A stretch of DNA of 64,000 nt. Source: a virus (lineage: Duplodnaviria; Caudoviricetes). Both the position numbers and the translations under genes were made by a program. Position 1 is the stretch's first letter; the number at the start of each line of letters is the position of its first letter. Under the pieces are notes generated by a model. That model was not told the origin of the DNA and did no database searches. It saw only the letters and a list, made by a program, of their open reading frames with translations. Positions 6,048 to 63,475 of the stretch are shown here, in pieces. The DNA is taken from the IMG/VR virus record IMGVR_UViG_3300025389_001063; one strand, 5' to 3'.

Positions 6048-6120
6048 TTCGATTCTCCACGTATATTTAACAAGAAATAACCCGCTATATCTTAAAATAC
6101 CAGTTAATAAATAGAAGAAC

Positions 6121-6864
6121 ATGACACAGAGAAACAGAAAAGAATATAGATCAATCTTTATCTCAGATGTACATTTAGGTACAAAATACGCCAACGCCGA
6201 ATTACTCCTAGAATTTCTAAAAGATACAAGAGCCGAAAGATACTATCTAATCGGTGATATTATTGATGGTTGGTCTATGAAGAAGAAAGTGTACTGGCCA
6301 CAAGCACATAATAACATAGTACAATACTTTCTAAAACTATCCAAAAACGATCACAAGGTTTTTTACATAACAGGTAATCACGATGAGTTCTTAAGAGAAT
6401 ACGGTGGAACCACAATGGGAAATATTCATCTTGTAAATGAATGTATCCATCACGGTGAGAATGGAAAAAGATATCTAGTTATCCATGGTGACCAATTTGA
6501 TCTTGTTACCACTAACGCTAAATGGTTAGTTCATATCGGCAGTTGGGCATATGATTGTATGATTGAACTTAATACAAAATTACAATGGCTTTATAGAACT
6601 TTGGATATTAAAGGTTTCTCATTAAGTGCTTGGGCAAAGCATAGTGTTAAAGAAGCAGTAAACTTTATTGGTGATTACGAAGATGTTGTTTCAGACTATG
6701 CTGCTAAAAAATGTGTTGACGGAGTTATATGTGGTCACATACATTTTTGTAATATCAAAGAGATGAACGGCATACAATATATGAATACAGGTGACTGGGT
6801 AGAATCATGTACTGCTATAGTTGAACATCACAATGGAAAGTTTGAGTTGTTGAGGTTCTTATGA
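6121..6864 (+). CDS. plcP: PlcP-type phospholipase C (LpxH-like metallophosphoesterase)
   Basis: Motifs FISDVHLG, GDIIDGW, YWPQ, GNHDEFLR, HGDQFD, SLSAWAK..VKEAVNFIG, DGVICGHIH and YMNTGDWVESCTA. It sits next to an Agt-like glycosyltransferase. Confidence 0.8.
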   Translation: MTQRNRKEYRSIFISDVHLGTKYANAELLLEFLKDTRAERYYLIGDIIDGWSMKKKVYWPQAHNNIVQYFLKLSKNDHKVFYITGNHDEFLREYGGTTMGNIHLVNECIHHGENGKRYLVIHGDQFDLVTTNAKWLVHIGSWAYDCMIELNTKLQWLYRTLDIKGFSLSAWAKHSVKEAVNFIGDYEDVVSDYAAKKCVDGVICGHIHFCNIKEMNGIQYMNTGDWVESCTAIVEHHNGKFELLRFL

Positions 6865-7577
6865 GTAATTTAGAAAAAAATTATCGCAAGATTTATGAAA
6901 ATCATCATGGTTCTATCCCAAAAGGCTATCATATTCATCACAAGGATGGAAATCATCTAAACAATCATATAGATAACTTACAATGCGTATCAGTACAAGA
7001 TCATTTTAATATTCATTTCTCTCAAGGAGACTGGGGTGCTTGTTATGCTTTATTCAAAACAGGGCATATGACATTAACTCCAGAGCAGAGATCAGATATT
7101 GCTAGTCGCCGCGAAAAGAAAAAAGTAGAAGATAAAGAACATATTTTTCTTAATCCAGAATTTGTTGCTATGGTTGCCGAAATAAATAGCAAAAGATTAC
7201 AAGAATTAGCAAAAGAAGGTAAACATCCGGCACAATTAGAAAAAAATAGAAAAAAGTTATCCGAAAGAAATTCAAAAACACAAAGCGACTTATCTAAAAA
7301 AGGAAAACACGTTTTCCAAAAAAAGGAACATCGTGAAAAACTTTCTAAAATAGTTAGCGAATCTAATAAAAGACGAGCAACTGGAACTAACTGGTGGAAT
7401 AATGGACAGAAAAATAAACAATCAAAGGAATGTCCAGGCAATGGTTGGACCATTGGGAGGTTAGAGGTTAGTGGCTCTAAAGGATTCAAATGGTGGAATA
7501 ATGGAATTAATAATGTTTTTACAAAAACTTTCCCAGGCAATGACTGGGTATCAGGAAGAATAAAAGAGGATAAATGA
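6861..7577 (+). mobile_element. HNH homing endonuclease with duplicated C-terminal WWNNG DNA-binding repeats
   Basis: HIHHKDGNHLNNHIDNL...H motif and two WWNNG...PG..W..GR repeats. It is wedged between plcP and agt with 4-nt overlaps. Confidence 0.8.
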
Positions 7578-8581
7578 TGAAAATTGTTATTTTTTCAGAT
7601 GCTTCGAGTAAGAATCAAATAAATGGCGTAAAATATACAATTGAACAAACTAAAAAATGTCTTGAATTAAGAGGTTATACTGTTACAATAATTGGACCAG
7701 ATGACTATAAGGTTACAGTTCCTCTTCAACCTTCAACTGGTATCTATATGCCAATATTTCCTCTTGGTCTTGTTGAAGATGCACTCGAGGACGCAGATTA
7801 TATTCATATAGCGACGGAGGGATCAATTGGACTTGCTGCCAGATACGCCTGTAAAAAACAAAAAAAGAAATATACTACAAGTTTTCATACTAAATTTCCA
7901 GACTACCTTTATGAACATGCTTATATTCCACCCAGAGTTACTGGTCGGTATTTTCGTTGGTTTCATCGAAACAGCAGTTCTGTTCTCGTTACAAACGCCG
8001 CCATGGTTAACTATTGTTCTAAACTGGGCATCAAACACCTAACAATCTGGTCAAGGGGTGTTGATACAAATCTATTCAAACCAGATCCTAATTTTAAGAG
8101 ACAAGGATCTGCTATTCGTGCTGTCTACGTTGGTAGAGTTAGTGCCGAAAAGAATCTAGAAGCATTTCTCAAAATAGAAAATCCTAATATCATAAAATAT
8201 GTCATTGGTGACGGACCACAATTAGATTCCTATAAAGTATTATATCCTGATGCTTTTTTTCTTGGTAAGAAGACACATGAAGAAATTGCTAAATTATTAC
8301 AAACAATGGATGTCTTTGCTTGGCCTTCGCTAACGGATACATTTGGACTTGTTGTATTGGAGGCTATGGCTTGTGGATTACCTGTTGCTGGATTCGATAA
8401 TGAAGTTAATCGTTACCTTATTGAAGATGGTATTTCTGGATCATTAATGAAATTTGATCTTGAAGAAGGTATATTAGCATCTTTTCAATGCTTGAAGAAA
8501 GAAGATGCTATCGCTCGTGCCCAAAAGTTTTCCTGGGACGCAGCAACAGATCAATTTGTTGACAATCTAGTTAAGTCTTGA
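7574..8581 (+). CDS. agt: GT4 glycosyltransferase, Agt-like (glycolipid synthase)
   Basis: Motifs QINGV, IHIATEGSIGLAAR, YTTSFHTKFPDY, WSRGVD, YVGRVSAEKNL and FPS-like WPSLTDTFGLVVLEAMACGLPV. Confidence 0.75.
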   Translation: MMKIVIFSDASSKNQINGVKYTIEQTKKCLELRGYTVTIIGPDDYKVTVPLQPSTGIYMPIFPLGLVEDALEDADYIHIATEGSIGLAARYACKKQKKKYTTSFHTKFPDYLYEHAYIPPRVTGRYFRWFHRNSSSVLVTNAAMVNYCSKLGIKHLTIWSRGVDTNLFKPDPNFKRQGSAIRAVYVGRVSAEKNLEAFLKIENPNIIKYVIGDGPQLDSYKVLYPDAFFLGKKTHEEIAKLLQTMDVFAWPSLTDTFGLVVLEAMACGLPVAGFDNEVNRYLIEDGISGSLMKFDLEEGILASFQCLKKEDAIARAQKFSWDAATDQFVDNLVKS

Positions 8582-8611: not shown

Positions 8612-9241
8612 ATGAGATATCAGTTTCCAAAGATTGAGCATATTAACGATGTGCTACCCGCTATTCAGGACTCTCCCGAATTTATTGTGGCGGAGCGTGA
8701 ATACTTCACTGTGATTAACTATTTGGTTTCACATCCGGAGACCTTTCCCGAAGTGGACGAATCTCCCGAATTAGAATATGATCTGATCGCAAAGCGTAAC
8801 GCTATCCGTCGTGAATGCCGCGGACTTATCTTCTGTAAGACTACCGGTAAGATACTTCGGAGACCGTTTTCCAAATTCTTTAATATTGGAGAGCGAGACG
8901 AAACCCAACTTCATTTGTTAGACTTCACTGGTTCGCACGAGGTCTTTACCAAGGAAGACGGTTCTATGGTAACTCCATTTGAAGTTGGTTTTGGTTCCGG
9001 TGTAATCCGTTGGGCGACAAAGATGGGATTATCGGATGTGGCTCTGAACGCAGAAGTGTTTGTGGCAGAAAATCCAAAGTATCAAGAGTTTGCCAAATGG
9101 TGTATTGCCAATCGGCTAACTCCTATATTTGAATGGGTAAGCCGCAAGAATAGAATTGTTCTCGACTATCCCGAGGATAATCTTATTCTTCTTGCTGTTC
9201 GGCATATGGAGACGGGAGAATATCTTCCTTTGAAGGTATAG
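8612..9241 (+). CDS. rnlA: T4 Rnl1-like RNA ligase, N-terminal piece (motifs I to IIIa)
   Basis: ECRGLIF, RPFSKFFN, motif I TKEDGS, TPIFEW and LILLAVRHMETGEY. The ORF stops before motifs IV and V. Confidence 0.85.
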   Translation: MRYQFPKIEHINDVLPAIQDSPEFIVAEREYFTVINYLVSHPETFPEVDESPELEYDLIAKRNAIRRECRGLIFCKTTGKILRRPFSKFFNIGERDETQLHLLDFTGSHEVFTKEDGSMVTPFEVGFGSGVIRWATKMGLSDVALNAEVFVAENPKYQEFAKWCIANRLTPIFEWVSRKNRIVLDYPEDNLILLAVRHMETGEYLPLKV

Positions 9242-9941
9242 ATCCTAAATACTTCTCTATTGATGCTAAAGACAAACAGGTTCTTCTTTTGATTAACTCT
9301 TTGTTTTTAGCATCATTAAATGTTTCTTCAGTAAGTTTATCATAATGTATATAAAACTTTTGTAAGAACTTAATACATCTACCTTTTATAAGATTTTTCT
9401 TTCGGTCCTCATTAAACTTTATACCTGTTTGACCTAATGAAATTTTGCGGCGATCTTCCTCTGTTCTTTTAGATCCTTTCCATAAGGACCGCAATTTAGA
9501 ACGAGTTTCTTCGGAAACAATTCTACCTGTATTTCTTATTATTAGTGCTTCACGGACATGCTCAGGTCGAGGTTTTCCCTTATAACGATCTTTAGCCATA
9601 CTCGCATGTTCTTCTTTAATTGCTGTATATAATTTTGAATTAAGTTTTGTAGGCCATCTATTACTCGTTGACATTCTTTTATACGCACATAACATTCTAT
9701 ATTTCGGATCACCGATAACCATTCTTGTTAATAATAGATGACAAATATAATGTTCTCTACAAGTAAGAAGAACGAGATTATCTTTAGAATTACTTCCTCC
9801 TAAAGATTTTGGAAAAATATGATGAGATTCTAAAGTGCCATCGAACTTTTTGGATCTATTTTCGGATTTGGCTTTCTCAATAATGGCAAGATACCAATTT
9901 GTATATTTGTTTGTGAGAAAATATGTGCTATAAATATTCAT
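9183..9941 (-). mobile_element. MobE-like HNH/NUMOD3 homing endonuclease inserted antisense into the RNA ligase gene
   Basis: HHIFPKSLGGSNSKDNLVLLTCREHYICHLLL and NUMOD3-like repeats. Start ATG 9941 follows an AGGAG SD; its last codons overlap rnl on the opposite strand. Confidence 0.85.
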
Positions 9942-10007
9942 GCTGTTGCTCCTATAAAGCGATAGAGTAGTTGGGAACGCCAATTCCGTGAACTACACTC
10001 TTATTTA
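9942..10007 (-). repeat. Endonuclease leader element, copy A (late promoter, hairpin, SD)
   Basis: Near-identical to 20941-21008. Minus strand reads ATAAATA-AGAGTGTAGTTCACGGAA-TTGGCG-TTCCCAACTACTCT...AGGAGCAACAGC-ATG. Confidence 0.85.
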
Positions 10008-10066: not shown

Positions 10067-10729
10067 ATGGACTTAATCAATCAACTTTTGGAACGCATTA
10101 AAACTTTGGACATCCCTGTTGTGGCAACACACGACCCTGTTGTTGATCCAAAGGCTTTTATGGATTATGTCCGCGACCTTAAGGATGCTGAAGGATTTGT
10201 TATTGCGTGGCCTTCCGGATACCGCGTAAAAACTAAAGCAGCAGATTACCTCCGCCTCCATAAAGTTAAGGACTCGCTCAGTCAGGAAAAGAATGTTATC
10301 GAAATGCTTATTAGCGAATCAATCGATGACGCTAAACCTTTCATGAGTGCCGAAGATCGTAAGAGAGTAGAGGAGTTTGAAGATGGATTTTGGCAGAATG
10401 TTGAATATTCTGCTAAAGAGTTTGAATCTTACTTTAATAGATTATCTATTGATCGTAAGACTTGGTCTCTAGAACATATGAAAGATATGAACGCGAAGAA
10501 TCCATTTTCTTCAAACATTGTGTTCAACTTGTACAATGGTAAAAGTGCTCTCGATACAATCATTGAGATCATTACTAAAAACTTATCAACTCAAACTCAA
10601 GTAGATAAAGTCCGCTGCCTTTGGGGTGGACTTTATTGGAATTATTCCTTTGGTGAAGAACAACAAAAAGTTGCCTCTGGCTTCTTTGGCAAGTGGGCTG
10701 AACATAAACATGTGGAGCAATTACAATGA
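10067..10729 (+). CDS. rnlA: T4 Rnl1-like RNA ligase, C-terminal piece (motifs IV and V plus helical domain)
   Basis: Motif IV AEGFVI, motif V RVKTKAADYLRLH, then IDDAKPF. Confidence 0.85.
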   Translation: MDLINQLLERIKTLDIPVVATHDPVVDPKAFMDYVRDLKDAEGFVIAWPSGYRVKTKAADYLRLHKVKDSLSQEKNVIEMLISESIDDAKPFMSAEDRKRVEEFEDGFWQNVEYSAKEFESYFNRLSIDRKTWSLEHMKDMNAKNPFSSNIVFNLYNGKSALDTIIEIITKNLSTQTQVDKVRCLWGGLYWNYSFGEEQQKVASGFFGKWAEHKHVEQLQ

Positions 10730-11160
10730 TGAAGGAGAATAGAATGCGTAAGATACTTTTAACAACTGCTGTTATCGCAGCACTTGCTATTCCTGCTGCA
10801 ACACCTGCCGATGCTTGGTGGCGAGGTGGTGGTTGGGGTTATGGCGGCGGCTGGGGCGGCTACGGAATGGGTTACGGTGGTTGGGGTTACGGAGGCTATG
10901 GAATGGGGATGATGGGCGCTGCTGCTGGTGGAGCATTACTTGGTGGTATCGTTGGTGGTGCTATTGCTGCTCAAGCTGCTCGTCCAGTTTATGCTGCTCC
11001 TGCTCCAGTTTATGCTGCTCCTGCTCCGGTAGTAGTTGAACAACCTGCAACAGTAGTAGTTGAACAACCTGCCCCTGTAGTTGTTGTAAAACGTAGATGT
11101 CAAATTATGCAAGAATGGGATGCATTAGAAGGCTATGTTTACAAAAAGGTATGTCTATGA
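10726..11160 (+). CDS. Secreted Gly/Tyr/Trp-rich protein with Pro-Val repeats
   Basis: Signal peptide (A-D-A), GGWGYGG repeats, tandem PVYAAPA and VVVEQPA repeats, and a C-terminal Cys pair. Confidence 0.7.
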   Translation: MMKENRMRKILLTTAVIAALAIPAATPADAWWRGGGWGYGGGWGGYGMGYGGWGYGGYGMGMMGAAAGGALLGGIVGGAIAAQAARPVYAAPAPVYAAPAPVVVEQPATVVVEQPAPVVVVKRRCQIMQEWDALEGYVYKKVCL

Positions 11161-15468: not shown

Positions 15469-15544
15469 GGGGGATTAGCTCAGTTGGGAGAGCGACTGAT
15501 TTGCATTCAGTAGGTCATCGGTTCGATCCCGGTATCCTCCACCA
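15469..15544 (+). tRNA. tRNA-Ala (UGC)
   Basis: Full cloverleaf, G3:U70 pair, encoded CCA. Confidence 0.95.
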
Positions 15545-15547
15545 TAT

Positions 15548-15626
15548 CGGAGTATAGCGCAGCCTGGTTTAGCGCATCTGCTTTGGGAGCAGAGGGTCGC
15601 AAGTTCGAATCTTGCTACTCCGACCA
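15548..15626 (+). tRNA. tRNA-Pro (UGG)
   Basis: Cloverleaf, TCTGC-TTTGGGA-GCAGA anticodon arm, encoded CCA. Confidence 0.95.
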
Positions 15627-15642
15627 ACATAAAGGAAAGAAA

Positions 15643-16378: not shown

Positions 16379-17089
16379 ATGCCTACAATGCGAATCATAA
16401 TACCTGCAAGAATGAAAAGTATAAGACTTCCTAATAAACCTCTAGCAATGATTGGAGATATAACACTTATCGAAAGAGTTCATCAAAAGGCTTGTGCTAC
16501 AGATTATCTTGTTACTGTTTTAACCGATAGTCAAGAACTTAAAGATCAATTTCCTAATTGGGACATAAGATTAACACCAGAAGACTGTGCTACAGGAACA
16601 GACAGAATTGCTAGTGTTGCAGATCAATTTCAAGAAGATATTCTTGTAAACTGTCAAGGTGATTTGCCATTTATTGATTCTTATCAAATTGTAGATACTG
16701 CTATAACTTTGGAAAGAACTAAAGCAGATGTTGCTACATTAGTTCATGATATGGATCTTAATAAATTAGAAGATCCTAATACTGTAAAGGCAATATGCTG
16801 TCAAGTTGCTCCAGACTTAGATCCAAAAATTATGAGAGCACATTGGTTCCTCAGAAGTTCTCTAAAATATGGATATCAACATGTTGGTGTGTATGCTTAT
16901 CGTCGAGAATTCTTACAAGTACTTTCTTCTGAAAGAACTCCGCATGAAGTAGCAGAAAATCTTGAACAGTTGAGATTCTTAGAACTTGGATATAAAATTG
17001 CTGCTCTACATACCGATCCGGTGCCGTTAGAGGTTAATACTCCAGAAGATCTCGAAGCAGCAAATAAATATTTGTATGAGATTTTATGA
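16379..17089 (+). CDS. kdsB: CMP-KDO synthetase (3-deoxy-manno-octulosonate cytidylyltransferase)
   Basis: IIIPARMKSIRLPNKPL, TGTDRI, VNCQGDLP, HVGVYAYR, AENLEQLRFL and VNTPEDL motifs. Confidence 0.9.
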   Translation: MPTMRIIIPARMKSIRLPNKPLAMIGDITLIERVHQKACATDYLVTVLTDSQELKDQFPNWDIRLTPEDCATGTDRIASVADQFQEDILVNCQGDLPFIDSYQIVDTAITLERTKADVATLVHDMDLNKLEDPNTVKAICCQVAPDLDPKIMRAHWFLRSSLKYGYQHVGVYAYRREFLQVLSSERTPHEVAENLEQLRFLELGYKIAALHTDPVPLEVNTPEDLEAANKYLYEIL

Positions 17090-17318: not shown

Positions 17319-18215
17319 TCATTCTTTTCTTGCTTTTCTATCAAGGCCGTTTTTACAGATTTCTTTAGAACAAATAACAGGATCTTTAGGCCACTCAATA
17401 GGCATATTATAAATGTTACCTATTACTCCTCCTTCATGACACCACCCTCTAGAAACATTTCCTCTGGGATCAATTACTAAAGTATCAATTCCTGCATAAC
17501 AGGTCATATTAGTATAAGAAGATTGTTCTGATGTTTTAATAACTATACCAGTTGGATCAATTGATATATCCTCATTGAATGAATTTTCGATTGATTCTTT
17601 CATTTTATTAAATTTATACCATTGTCGATGAGTGTAGGGGAGATATGTATTATTTCCTTTTCCAAAATCACTGTAAAGAAGTTGTAAATTACCTAAACCG
17701 TATTTTCTTCTAAAATATTTTACATACTTAATACCTCTATCAAAAACTTCATCGTGATTTGTAACTGGAAATAAAATTTCCATTTCTACAGGATGATATT
17801 TGTCATTCTCTCTTAATAAAGAAATAACATTTTCTATATGAGATATATCACAAAATTCTTGATGAACAGAAATAATTACTTTTGATAAAAATTGTCGAGA
17901 TTTCTTCCACCAATCTAAACTTGCACTTCCATTTGTTCTAAGAATTAAATTTGTGGGATAGTTGTGTAGACGATTTCCTATATTGGGAATTTTTTCATAA
18001 AGAGTAGGTTCACCACCTATAAATTCAAATATCACATCTCTTCCTAGAGAATCATAATGTGCAAAAATATCTGTACAAACATTAATGATAGTTTCGTCAT
18101 TAGGATAAGGATTATCTCCTCTTTTGAGAAGATCTAAGCAGTAACTACAATTGTAATTACAACTATTACTTAAAACCCATTCTACTATAGTCTTAGGTCG
18201 TTCAAAGTCATCCAT
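17319..18215 (-). CDS. Radical SAM protein with a C-terminal SPASM/Twitch-like domain
   Basis: CNYNCSYC, GGEP, TNG, CYAG...WC and C-terminal C...C motifs. Confidence 0.85.
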   Translation of the reverse strand: MDDFERPKTIVEWVLSNSCNYNCSYCLDLLKRGDNPYPNDETIINVCTDIFAHYDSLGRDVIFEFIGGEPTLYEKIPNIGNRLHNYPTNLILRTNGSASLDWWKKSRQFLSKVIISVHQEFCDISHIENVISLLRENDKYHPVEMEILFPVTNHDEVFDRGIKYVKYFRRKYGLGNLQLLYSDFGKGNNTYLPYTHRQWYKFNKMKESIENSFNEDISIDPTGIVIKTSEQSSYTNMTCYAGIDTLVIDPRGNVSRGWCHEGGVIGNIYNMPIEWPKDPVICSKEICKNGLDRKARKE

Positions 18216-18765: not shown

Positions 18766-19437
18766 GTGTATTTACAGAACAAATATACCACTTGGTATTA
18801 TTTAATAATAGCACAGGCCCAGAAAAGAATCAACCTGCCTATTTTCGTTGAGAAACATCATATCATTCCAAAATCATTAGGTGGTAATAATAGTGATGAC
18901 AATTTGGTTAGATTAACACCGAGAGAGCACTTTGTTTGTCATCTTCTCTTAACGAAAATGGTTACAGGTGATGCCCAAAGAAAAATGTGGTTTGCTTCTT
19001 ATTTAATGATGCGAGGAACAAAAAGATATAAACCTTCTGGAAGATTATATGAGATTCTTAAACAGAAAATGATACAATCACTTAAAGAAAGACCTGGACC
19101 AAATTTAGGAAAAAAACTTTCTGAAGAACATAAGAAGAAACTTAGTTTAGCACAAAAGGGAATTCCTAAAGGACCAATGTCTGAAGAGCATAGAGAGAAA
19201 CTAAGAAAACCTAAAACAGAAGAGCATAAGAAGAAACTATCAGAAGTAAGATTAGGTAAATCTTGGGGACATAAACATTCGGAAGAAACTAAACAAAAAA
19301 TGTCTAATTGGCAAAGGGGTATTCCTAAACCTAAAGTAACATGTGAGCATTGTGGGAAAGAATTGTCACTAATGAATTATAAAAAATGGCATGGAGATAA
19401 ATGTGTCAACTGCGGCGGTAAGAGTCATGTAAAATGA
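18766..19437 (+). mobile_element. MobE-like HNH/NUMOD3 homing endonuclease
   Basis: EKHHIIPKSLGGNNSDDNLVRLTPREHFVCHLLL, several SEEHKKKLS repeats and a C-terminal CxxC. Confidence 0.85.
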
Positions 19438-20349: not shown

Positions 20350-20940
20350 CTATGCTTGTAAATCTTTTTTTCTATTCTTTGCTGCCAAACTTAATTTTTC
20401 TCGGTGTTCATCACTAAAAGTTATTCCTTTTCTTGATTCTGATATTTTCTTCTTTGTTTCTTCAGACCTTTTACTTCCTTTAACTGCTCCGCCTACTATA
20501 TTAGTCTTAGATGCTAGACTCATTTTCTGCTTTGTTTCTTTTGATACTATTTTTCCTTTATGGGCTCTACTTATAGCCTCTCTATGTTGATCAGTTCTTC
20601 CAATAAGTTTATGTGCTTCAGAAAGTTGTATTCGTAGAATTTCAAACATTCTTGAGCACGGAACATATCTATCCATTGATTTAGTTTTTCTGTTCATCAT
20701 AGAATTTAAGGCAAATATCATCTTACTTTTATTTTTATCAGATGTTATTCTAACTAATAACAAATGGCATATAAAGTGTTCTCTTGCGGTTAAGACAGCA
20801 AGATTATCTGCGTCATTTGTTCCGCCTAATGATCTTGGAATGATATGATGTTTTTCTTTATACCCTTCTAACTTTCGGGTCTTTGCTCTATTACAAATGT
20901 CTTGATAAATTTTGAGATATTTGTTATCAATAAATATCAT
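20350..20940 (-). mobile_element. MobE-like HNH/NUMOD3 homing endonuclease
   Basis: EKHHIIPRSLGGTNDADNLAVLTAREHFICHLLL and SEETKKKIS repeats. Confidence 0.85.
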
Positions 20941-56123: not shown

Positions 56124-56891
56124 ATGGCAATATTAACTAAGACTGCCGCAGTTTCAGACACAGACGCACAAGTAGTCGATTTACGTGGTATGTGGATCGG
56201 ACTAGTAACACTCAATGTTTTTTACCTAATTGTACGTATATATGAACAAATCTTTGGCTGGAGAGCTGGCCTTGATTCGTTCGCTCCAGAGTTCCAGACA
56301 TATTGGATGTCAATCCTATGGACTGAAATTCCTCTAGAACTAGTTTCGGGTTTAGGCCTCGCAGGTTATCTTTGGAAGACTCGCGATCGTAACCTTGCAG
56401 CAGTTTCTCCACGTGAGGAAATGCGCAGACTAGTTGTTCTTGTACAGTGGCTCGTAGTTTACGGCATTGCCATTTATTGGGGTGCTTCGTTCTTTACAGA
56501 GCAGGACGGTACTTGGCACATGACAGTTATTCGTGATACAGACTTTACTCCAAGTCACATCATTGAGTTCTATATGTCATATCCAATCTACAGCGTTATT
56601 GCTGTTGGTGCTTTCTTCTATGCAAGAACACGTATTCCATACTTCGCTCAAGGCTATTCATTAGCATTCTTGATCGTTGCTATTGGACCATTTATGATTA
56701 TTCCAAACGTTGGTCTCAACGAGTGGGGTCATACTTTCTGGTTCATGGAAGAACTCTTTGTAGCACCGCTACATTGGGGCTTTGTGTTCTTTGGTTGGAT
56801 GGCACTAGGCGTATTTGGTGTTGTTCTACAGATTCTAGGTCGTGTTCACGCTCTAGTTGGCAAAGAAGGTGTTGCTCTACTAACAGAGTAA
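56124..56891 (+). CDS. pmoC: Particulate methane monooxygenase subunit C (stand-alone)
   Basis: GWRAGLDSFAPEFQTYW, WGASFFTEQDGTWHMTVIRDTDFTPSHIIEFY and NEWGHTFWFMEELFVAPLHWGF. Strong SD; upstream TTGAC and TATAAATA promoters. Confidence 0.97.
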   Translation: MAILTKTAAVSDTDAQVVDLRGMWIGLVTLNVFYLIVRIYEQIFGWRAGLDSFAPEFQTYWMSILWTEIPLELVSGLGLAGYLWKTRDRNLAAVSPREEMRRLVVLVQWLVVYGIAIYWGASFFTEQDGTWHMTVIRDTDFTPSHIIEFYMSYPIYSVIAVGAFFYARTRIPYFAQGYSLAFLIVAIGPFMIIPNVGLNEWGHTFWFMEELFVAPLHWGFVFFGWMALGVFGVVLQILGRVHALVGKEGVALLTE

Positions 56892-62350: not shown

Positions 62351-63238
62351 TTAGATTTTTAATCTTGCTTCTATATATTCAGCAATTTGTTCTGCGACAT
62401 TTACTTTAACATAAGTTTCAAAACCTTCAAAACCTGGAGCAGAATTTGCTTCACATACTTTGAACCCGTCGTTGTCAAATAATAAGTCGATGCCGGCTAT
62501 ATCTAATCCTAAGGCTCTTGCTGTTTTAATACAAAGTGTTTCTATTTCTTCTGTTACTTCAAATGCTTCACCAGTGCCGCCACCTGTGATATTAGCACGA
62601 AAGTCACCTTGTGGTCCTGTTCTTTTCATTGCACCAATAACTCTGTTACCTAAAACCCAAACACGAAGATCTGTGCCTTTGCTATTATCTATAAACTCTT
62701 GAACTATCATAATTTTCTTAAGACCTAGTCCGTCTATTAGTCCCATAAGGTCTTCAAATAATTTTTTATTCTCACAAAGATAAACACCTCTACCATAACT
62801 CCCTTGTAGAACTTTTACTACACAAGGAAATCCAATTTCTCCTTCTACTAAAGAACTAGAAACTGGAAACTTAACTAACATAGTTTTTGGAGTTGGAATA
62901 TTGTTTTGAGATAAAATTTGATGTGCTAATAATTTGTCTTTAACATTATTAATACCATCTATACTGTTAACTGTTGTTACAGATAATTTTTCAAGTTGTC
63001 TAATAACTGCTGAAGTAAAATAATTTGTTCCCGAACCTGTTCTATTTAGAACTATCTTAGGAAGAGTGATTTGTGTATTATTATATCTAACACTTTTTCT
63101 GTTATGTCTATTAACAATAATATCAAATTGATCAGGATTCATTAACTTAGCATTTAACTTTAGGTTACTAAATGCTTTCAAAAGTCTATCGTTTTCATAG
63201 TGTTCTATACTATGTTGACTCAAAATCCATATAGACAT
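62351..63238 (-). CDS. rimK: RimK-family ATP-grasp alpha-L-glutamate ligase
   Basis: DKLLAHQIL...IPTPKT, VVKVLQGSYGRGV, QEFI, DLRVWV, FRANI..GG, AGIDLL and EANSAPGF motifs. Confidence 0.85.
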   Translation of the reverse strand: MSIWILSQHSIEHYENDRLLKAFSNLKLNAKLMNPDQFDIIVNRHNRKSVRYNNTQITLPKIVLNRTGSGTNYFTSAVIRQLEKLSVTTVNSIDGINNVKDKLLAHQILSQNNIPTPKTMLVKFPVSSSLVEGEIGFPCVVKVLQGSYGRGVYLCENKKLFEDLMGLIDGLGLKKIMIVQEFIDNSKGTDLRVWVLGNRVIGAMKRTGPQGDFRANITGGGTGEAFEVTEEIETLCIKTARALGLDIAGIDLLFDNDGFKVCEANSAPGFEGFETYVKVNVAEQIAEYIEARLKI

Positions 63239-63475
63239 GCAGGGATCCTCTCGCATTGTATTTATTGCTATTAGTTTAGTAAAAACGTGTTATTATTCTC
63301 CTTTATTTTTCCGGTAAATATATAACCAACCAAATTTGGTGGTATTACTGATCGCATACGGACAGCCGATCAGCAGACGCAACTAAGGAGCAACATATCT
63401 ATGGCTCATAAGGATAATAATTAATCACCCCGCTCAAGAAGGGTAGTTAGTTGCGCTTATCATGAAAGGAAAAAT

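Follow-up and report, generated by a model that had tools for sequence, protein, structure and literature searches.

The bacterial PlcP-Agt pathway, in which a phospholipase C is paired with a diacylglycerol glycosyltransferase, has been described in Sinorhizobium (SMc00171), Phaeobacter (MED193), SAR11 (HTCC7211), Pseudomonas aeruginosa and Methylosinus trichosporium OB3b (PMC4796936, PMC9239053, PMC8231724). All type II methanotrophs carry plcP directly upstream of agt, and OB3b without plcP-agt forms no glucuronosyl-diacylglycerol, grows slowly at low phosphate and shows a disturbed packing of its intracytoplasmic membranes (PMC9239053). Here, we describe a pair of genes of the same two families in a phage (Duplodnaviria; Caudoviricetes), located in a stretch of 64,000 nt from IMG/VR record IMGVR_UViG_3300025389_001063, which is called the window throughout. 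The phage pair has the gene order and the tight linkage of its bacterial counterpart, and the catalytic and signature residues are kept; it differs in being virus-encoded, in forming a separate, old viral branch, in having no Pho box that we could find and in the homing endonuclease gene that lies between the two genes. We propose that it is probably a two-enzyme module that remodels host membrane phospholipid into glycolipid, by which phosphorus would be released for the phage genome.

In the window, 6121-8581 is filled by three open reading frames (ORFs) on the plus strand (Table 1). The plcP/HNH and HNH/agt junctions are both ATGA stop/start overlaps, and the three ORFs are translationally coupled. 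A sequence-only reading of this DNA had placed a single HNH gene between a phosphoesterase and a family-4 glycosyltransferase (GT4) gene in one operon; ORF positions and the Pfam HNH_3 match agree with it, and the ORF coordinates and every motif quoted for the two enzymes were recovered. In relatives that lack the HNH gene, plcP and agt overlap directly by ATGA, while the sister contig L184 has, at the same plcP/agt junction, an HNH_3 protein 67% identical to that of the window. The HNH gene encodes a free-standing homing endonuclease inherited from a common ancestor of the window and L184; its insertion exactly at the gene junction left both enzyme ORFs and their translational coupling unbroken.

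The window, with a G+C content of 32-42%, is phage DNA, and the entry for its GT4 protein belongs to a contig of 352,510 bp. It also codes for candidate ribonucleotide reductase and DnaK homologues (likeness at the level of the ORFs) and for a genuine pmoC (Table 1); the sequence-only reading had named both a phage pmoC and a methanotroph host. PmoC sequences of Methylocystis, from genomes and metagenome-assembled genomes, share 94-95% of their residues with the phage protein, which identifies the host as a methanotroph of type II (Alphaproteobacteria). Such a host agrees with the large pmoC-carrying phages that Chen et al. 2020 described from freshwater (PMC7674155).

Among proteins of solved structure, the phage phosphoesterase is most like LpxH (PDB 5B49, 5K8K, 5WLY, 8QJZ), with which it has in common a calcineurin-like core with a helical insertion, a predicted pair of metal ions and a presumably diacylated substrate. 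When an AlphaFold2 model (mean predicted local distance difference test score 83.8) was compared with PDB by Foldseek, LpxH structures took the first 25 places, with identities of 17-22% and template modelling scores of 0.5-0.6; in the model, a helical insertion predicted with lower confidence (about residues 128-196) occupies the position at which LpxH has its lipid-binding lid. At the sequence level, however, the two are separate. The window protein scored 50.5 bits on one NCBIfam LpxH equivalog model (cut-off 134) and 43.8 bits on the other, TIGR01854 (cut-off 190), and PDB LpxH sequences matched it at E about 1e-3 only. When TIGR01854 was run on seven beta- and gammaproteobacterial genomes with both paralogues, true LpxH scored 205-323 bits; the second, plcP-like paralogue was detected in five of the seven, at 30-50 bits, the range of the phage protein. 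In genomes with both paralogues, the plcP-like one was found upstream of an Agt-like GT4 in all three neighbourhoods checked.

In a maximum likelihood phylogeny of 156 rows (six true LpxH as outgroup; 65 cellular PlcP-like proteins, five of them from methanotrophs; 85 viral), LpxH stood apart from all PlcP-like rows on a branch that was 2.67 substitutions per site long and had full (100%) support. The window phosphoesterase fell among the paralogues linked to agt, a long way from true LpxH. This tree and that of Agt come from a quick LG+G4 search, and support is given as the Shimodaira-Hasegawa-like approximate likelihood ratio test. The alignment leads to the same division. The motifs YWPQ (residues 58-61), SLSAWAK (167-173), VKEAVNFIG (176-184) and NTGDWVESCTA (222-232), quoted in the sequence-only reading as being of PlcP type, are not chance matches, because the columns in which they lie vary little or not at all among 149 PlcP-like rows and differ in true LpxH. 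At residues 85-88, the window and all 149 PlcP-like rows have GNHD where all six true LpxH have GNRD; at residues 204-208, CGHIH stands in the place of HGHTH. The segment W59-P-Q..H63 and the block Y-x-N-x-GDWVESCTA are present in the window and the 149 rows, and absent from the six LpxH. All seven metal ligands (D16, H18, D46, N86, H122, H206 and H208) are intact and invariant.

Sebastian et al. accepted proteins as PlcP at E<1e-40 to the MED193 protein. With the single plcP products of Methylocystis, Methylosinus and Methylocapsa as proxies for characterised PlcP, the phage protein gave E values of 1e-84 to 4e-90, and it is 49-51% identical to an Agrobacterium tumefaciens protein. No true LpxH was found in five host-type methanotroph genomes (Methylocystis parvus, Methylocystis sp. 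JAN1, M. rosea, Methylosinus sporium and Methylocapsa aurea), which makes a role in lipid A synthesis odd in this host; a search of these genomes with PF06230 (LpxI) gave no match, a result that we do not take as absence. We thus rejected true LpxH as the identity of the phosphoesterase, on the sub-cut-off scores, the separate paralogue, the GNHD motif, the tree split and the lack of LpxH in host-type genomes. As the sequence-only reading had it, the enzyme is of the PlcP class, for which phospholipase C activity is predicted; equivalog scores, signature columns and phylogeny all agree.

The Agt group, as defined in the biochemical work on the SAR11 enzyme, is marked by the motifs GRVAXEKN and FPSXTDTFG, by a His104-Asp256 dyad and by an identity to other GT4s that stays below 25%, and the diacylglycerol pocket is lined by His104, Thr162, Arg163 and Trp320 (PMC8231724). 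The window GT4, which carries IHIATEGSIGLAAR from residue 77 and HTKFPDY at 105-111, has GRVSAEKN at 187-194, WPSLTDTFG at 250-258 and the dyad as H105 and D255; motifs and dyad are invariant in the Agt alignment, save for the window's own S and W variants. Of the pocket residues, equated by motif spacing rather than by alignment with HTCC7211, H105, R161 and W321 are kept, and the Thr162 position is Ser160 (G, S or T among homologues). The protein is 38-43% identical, above the 25% that delimits the Agt group, to GT4s from Caulobacter, Cupriavidus and others and to those linked with plcP in Thalassospira, Erythrobacter, Labrys, Methylocystis and others, and no other GT4 of the five host-type genomes reaches E 1e-20 against it. 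Its profile matches in PDB are GT4 enzymes only (GT-B architecture); neither an NCBIfam equivalog nor a solved structure was found near it. With the published motifs, the dyad and the likeness to GT4s located directly 3' of bacterial plcP, the assignment as Agt-like stands: the GT4 is of the Agt class, and its sequence predicts diacylglycerol glucosyl or glucuronosyl transfer.

We compared the gene context in the 80 best-matching loci of each collection, which are not a random sample. Among the cellular plcP loci, 51 of the 80 have an Agt-like GT4 immediately 3' on the same strand; conversely, plcP adjoins 58 of the 80 cellular GT4 loci, and in 55 it immediately precedes the GT4 gene in the same orientation. 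Each of the five methanotroph genomes has exactly one plcP and, at E<=1e-20, exactly one agt match, which lies directly after plcP. The phage proteins are, nevertheless, remote from these: they share 50-53% (PlcP) and 38-39% (Agt) of their residues with the products of the five methanotroph genomes, compared with 94-95% for pmoC, and in both trees methanotroph PlcP and Agt nest inside Rhizobiales (99-100% support), far from the phage rows. Recent capture of the pair from the host was therefore rejected, and the pair is an old phage module. A branch supported at 99% separates the viral Agt rows from the rest, and the window's clade consists of the same 14 viral rows in the PlcP and Agt trees, with 100% support, which argues that plcP and agt travel together in phages. 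Both genes are under purifying selection there, as judged from ratios of nonsynonymous to synonymous substitution rates of 0.02-0.16 for plcP and 0.08-0.17 for agt; these ratios come from closer phage pairs, the window and its relatives being saturated at synonymous sites.

Relatives are abundant among viruses. A protein search returned at least 8000 matches, the closest of those listed (52-98% identical) being encoded on metagenome contigs that reach 345 kb, and at least 595 IMG/VR contigs encode a relative of the window PlcP, among them complete terminal-repeat genomes of 168, 202, 338 and 480 kb. Two cultured phages carry plcP alone, annotated in both as putative UDP-2,3-diacylglucosamine hydrolase: the SAR11 phage Mosig (Pelagibacter; 44% identical, divergent from pstS) and the cyanophage S-SRM01 (Synechococcus; 36%). 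A glycosyltransferase abuts plcP in 57 of the 80 viral loci. In 36 of the 80, it is an Agt-type GT4 directly 3' of plcP; in 21, it is a GT2/GT21-like protein beside an agt-less plcP (15 upstream, six downstream), which may be a candidate Pgt-like processive diacylglycerol glycosyltransferase. The occurrence of two unrelated glycosyltransferase partners argues that the selected function is phospholipid cleavage followed by diacylglycerol glycosylation.

Other neighbours of viral plcP point to phosphorus: pstS (Mosig, L233, L235), the phosphate-selective porin OprO/P (L248, L249) and phoH, some 700 bp upstream (L003/L178, L228, L247, L250). These lend indirect support to phosphate scavenging. 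Ribonucleotide reductase adjoins plcP in L187 and L215. In L248, as in L249 and L252, the porin gene lies directly 5' of plcP and a GT2 gene, the three forming a phosphorus-stress island. Directly 5' of plcP-HNH-agt, L184 has genes for UDP-glucose 6-dehydrogenase, two NAD-dependent epimerase/dehydratases and a methyltransferase. The product of UDP-glucose 6-dehydrogenase, UDP-glucuronate, is the donor for glucuronosyl lipid, and these genes may be a phage-encoded supply of it for glucuronosyl-diacylglycerol.

In the mechanism that we propose, PlcP, as a cytoplasmic, membrane-peripheral phospholipase C, would split host phosphatidylethanolamine, phosphatidylglycerol or phosphatidylcholine into diacylglycerol and a phospho-headgroup. 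Agt would then transfer glucose or glucuronate from the UDP-sugar onto diacylglycerol, yielding the phosphorus-free lipids monoglucosyl-diacylglycerol (MGDG) or glucuronosyl-diacylglycerol (GADG), which would keep the bilayer intact. Host phosphatases would free the headgroup phosphate for deoxynucleoside triphosphate and nucleotide synthesis towards the ~352-kb phage genome, and the phage copies would escape the PhoB/Pho-regulated control of plcP-agt in the host. Phosphorus often limits phage production, and the known phage strategies (pstS, phoA) aim at external phosphate. Like the pstS, phoA and phoH genes of marine phages, phage plcP is a host-like gene in large aquatic phages with phosphorus for DNA as the presumed gain; unlike them, it would tap internal membrane phospholipid, with a second, membrane-repairing enzyme at its side. 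If so, the switch from phospholipid to glycolipid would add an internal phosphorus reservoir to the phage repertoire. A Gram-negative cell has ~2e7 phospholipids, compared with ~7e5 phosphorus atoms in a 352-kb genome (order-of-magnitude, textbook figures); by this rough estimate, the phospholipid of a cell equals tens of such genomes in phosphorus, and more in a membrane-packed methanotroph.

A wider version of this proposal, in which lipid remodelling is a widespread, mis-annotated auxiliary metabolism of large aquatic phages of methanotroph, SAR11, cyanobacterial and other hosts, seems to us about evenly balanced. PlcP would usually come with a diacylglycerol glycosyltransferase of either of two unrelated types, would often have pstS, oprP or phoH as a neighbour, and would turn host phospholipid into phosphorus for phage DNA, with membranes, including those bearing particulate methane monooxygenase (pMMO), functional until lysis.

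Several observations weigh against phosphorus release as the role of the pair. The host already carries plcP-agt. PlcP releases a phosphoester, not free phosphate, and the benefit hangs on a further phosphatase. We found no Pho box (CTGTCAT-N4-CTGTCAT-like) near the operon, with three weak matches in the whole window against 7.1 expected; a Pho box is, however, a trait of cellular regulation and not of the PlcP enzyme. A consensus scan found no sigma-70-like site directly 5' of plcP, and in the wider region 15 sites against 12.4 expected from shuffles, that is, no excess. Neither pstS nor phoH nor ugd was found in the 64-kb window. The cultured phages yielded no Agt partner (best match 29% identical), and an action of the GT2-type partners on diacylglycerol is presumed. 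Finally, the trees contain orthologues from the same or related genera in place of the experimentally characterised proteins themselves.

The glycolipid itself could also be the aim, if altered membrane or surface lipids excluded superinfecting phages, resisted grazers or stabilised the envelope until lysis. The tie of 71% of the viral plcP loci to a glycosyltransferase would suit such a role, as would the sugar-nucleotide enzymes upstream in L184 and L006 and the shift of predator-prey outcomes with lipid remodelling (PMC9457565), and phage glycosyltransferases have been interpreted as surface modifiers, in a pelagimyophage study as modifiers of the O-antigen (PMC7029224). We nonetheless consider this unlikely, in view of the 23 viral loci of 80 without an adjacent glycosyltransferase of either type (a few being too short downstream to tell) and of the recurrence of pstS, oprP and phoH as neighbours; moreover, diacylglycerol glycolipids are bulk bilayer lipids and not known as phage receptors.

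The sequence-only reading had connected the pair with phage pmoC and with pMMO in the intracytoplasmic membranes of the methanotroph. Co-occurrence with pmoC holds in part. In five contigs of the window's subclade, plcP, agt, small ORFs and pmoC follow one another on one strand, with pmoC about 1 kb after agt and a PmoC 88-91% identical to that of the window; in L182, three small ORFs separate agt from pmoC, which is followed by genes for Hsp20, an M15 peptidase and FtsH (Table 1). FtsH homologues, 65-73% identical, also occur about 2 kb from pmoC in Methylocystis loci (L256, L266, L270, L280 and others); part of the host pmoC neighbourhood may thus have been taken over by the phage. A local functional link of plcP-agt with pmoC is possible in this subclade. 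On the other hand, pmoC is absent from five complete or near-complete plcP phage genomes (it is present in two partial records); the module is thus not specific to methanotroph phages. As a general trait, the link with intracytoplasmic membranes and pMMO had to be abandoned: hundreds of viral contigs, a SAR11 phage, a cyanophage and the five pmoC-less genomes speak against it. These same genomes and phages, and the distance of 48 kb between pmoC and plcP-agt in the window itself, make it rather improbable that the module and phage pmoC jointly preserve or restore the methane-oxidising membranes during infection, through a supply of diacylglycerol and glycolipid that keeps pMMO active, phosphorus release being secondary, for all that the gene order in the subclade, with Hsp20 and FtsH after pmoC, and the packing defects of the OB3b plcP-agt mutant at low phosphate (PMC9239053) would suggest it.

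Of the alternatives to phosphorus release, only a lipopolysaccharide module, with a true LpxH (lipid A step 4) and a core glycosyltransferase, is contradicted outright by the sequences, and we give it hardly any credence. Its grounds are the database name "UDP-2,3-diacylglucosamine pyrophosphatase LpxH" together with the filing of lpxH under lipopolysaccharide biosynthesis in viromes, the LpxH fold as nearest solved structure and a KdsB-like cytidylyltransferase in the window; they are outweighed by scores far under both equivalog cut-offs, the distinctness from the true LpxH paralogue of the same genomes (GNHD, not GNRD), the five host-type genomes devoid of true LpxH and the grouping of the GT4 with plcP-linked Agt. 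Very improbable, too, is a PlcP that acts late in infection as an accessory of lysis or membrane damage and weakens the inner membrane. The predicted phospholipase activity and the phage lineages in which plcP has no glycosyltransferase partner would suit such a role, but stop/start overlap ties PlcP tightly to a lipid-rebuilding enzyme, and its neighbours are metabolic, with no lysis cassette around it.

To the sequence-only reading, the pair was not known as an auxiliary module of phages, and we likewise found no description of phage plcP or of a plcP-agt module in the searchable full-text literature, whose coverage leaves out most subscription journals. Virome papers place viral "lpxH" under lipopolysaccharide biosynthesis; these catalogue entries and the Mosig and S-SRM01 genes are of the same family as the phage plcP of the window. 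The plcP gene goes unmentioned in the preprint on amoC-phages and in the genome note for Mosig, and those portions of the main text and supplements of Chen et al. 2020 that were accessible have no lipid, phosphate, phospholipase, LpxH or Metallophos (PMC7674155). If remodelling by phages is true, viral "lpxH" in virome surveys would belong to phosphorus and lipid metabolism and not to lipopolysaccharide synthesis, and phage infection would be tied to the phosphorus-stress markers MGDG and GADG and to methane oxidation in lakes.

Table 1. Features of the window and of related viral loci (coordinates refer to the window unless a locus is named).
Feature	Coordinates	Strand	Description
plcP-like gene	6121-6864	+	247 aa; Pfam Metallophos 4e-11; predicted phospholipase C, Mn-type metallophosphoesterase
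Free-standing HNH_3 homing endonuclease gene	6861-7577	+	238 aa; Pfam HNH_3 4e-14
agt-like gene	7574-8581	+	335 aa; Pfam Glyco_transf_4 9e-16 and Glycos_transf_1 2e-19; predicted diacylglycerol glucosyl/glucuronosyl transferase
Divergent intergenic region 5' of plcP	6049-6120		72 nt, read directly
pmoC	56124-56891	+	Pfam AmoC, E 5.5e-108
RNA ligase, N-terminal piece	8612-9241		RNA_lig_T4_1
HNH-type ORF	9183-9983	-	Free-standing
RNA ligase, C-terminal piece	10067-10729		T4_Rnl1_C
Small secreted-looking protein	10726-11160		Gly/Tyr/Trp-rich repeats, then Ala-Pro-Val repeats
Probable tRNA cluster	~15520-15640		83-88% identity to tRNA-Pro and tRNA-Asn genes of unrelated phages
KdsB-like cytidylyltransferase	16379-17089		CTP_transf_3, 2e-27
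Weak radical-SAM ORF	17319-18215	-	E 1.5e-4, 22.4 bits (Pfam cut-off 29.5 bits)
HNH-type ORF	18766-19437		Free-standing
HNH-type ORF	20350-20940	-	Free-standing
RimK-type ATP-grasp ligase	62351-63256	-	
GT2/GT21-like gene beside viral plcP	L192 5574-6281; L226 5105-5815		19 further loci
Sugar-nucleotide and methyltransferase genes	L184 6097-9830		Directly 5' of plcP-HNH-agt
Phosphate-selective porin	L248 8527-9933		Porin_O_P 8.6e-47
pmoC neighbourhood with Hsp20, M15 peptidase, FtsH	L182 12642-16522		The three genes follow pmoC
RimK	L006 9748-10632		Directly 3' of plcP-agt

Homing endonucleases seem to target the neighbourhood of plcP repeatedly. Three further free-standing HNH-type ORFs of the window have similar N-termini, and in ten other viral loci the gene right after plcP encodes a GIY-YIG endonuclease of the SegE type. 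One of the three HNH genes, on the opposite strand, separates the two pieces of a T4 Rnl1-type RNA ligase; in the viral locus L214, an intact Rnl1 gene stands directly after plcP. The small secreted-looking protein follows right after the second ligase piece.

The KdsB-like cytidylyltransferase represents further sugar-nucleotide metabolism in the window. The RimK-type ligase, distant from the operon in the window, has a 70% identical homologue directly 3' of plcP-agt in another lineage of giant phages (L006, L188), which also carries the curli genes csgF and csgG some 4 kb upstream of the pair.

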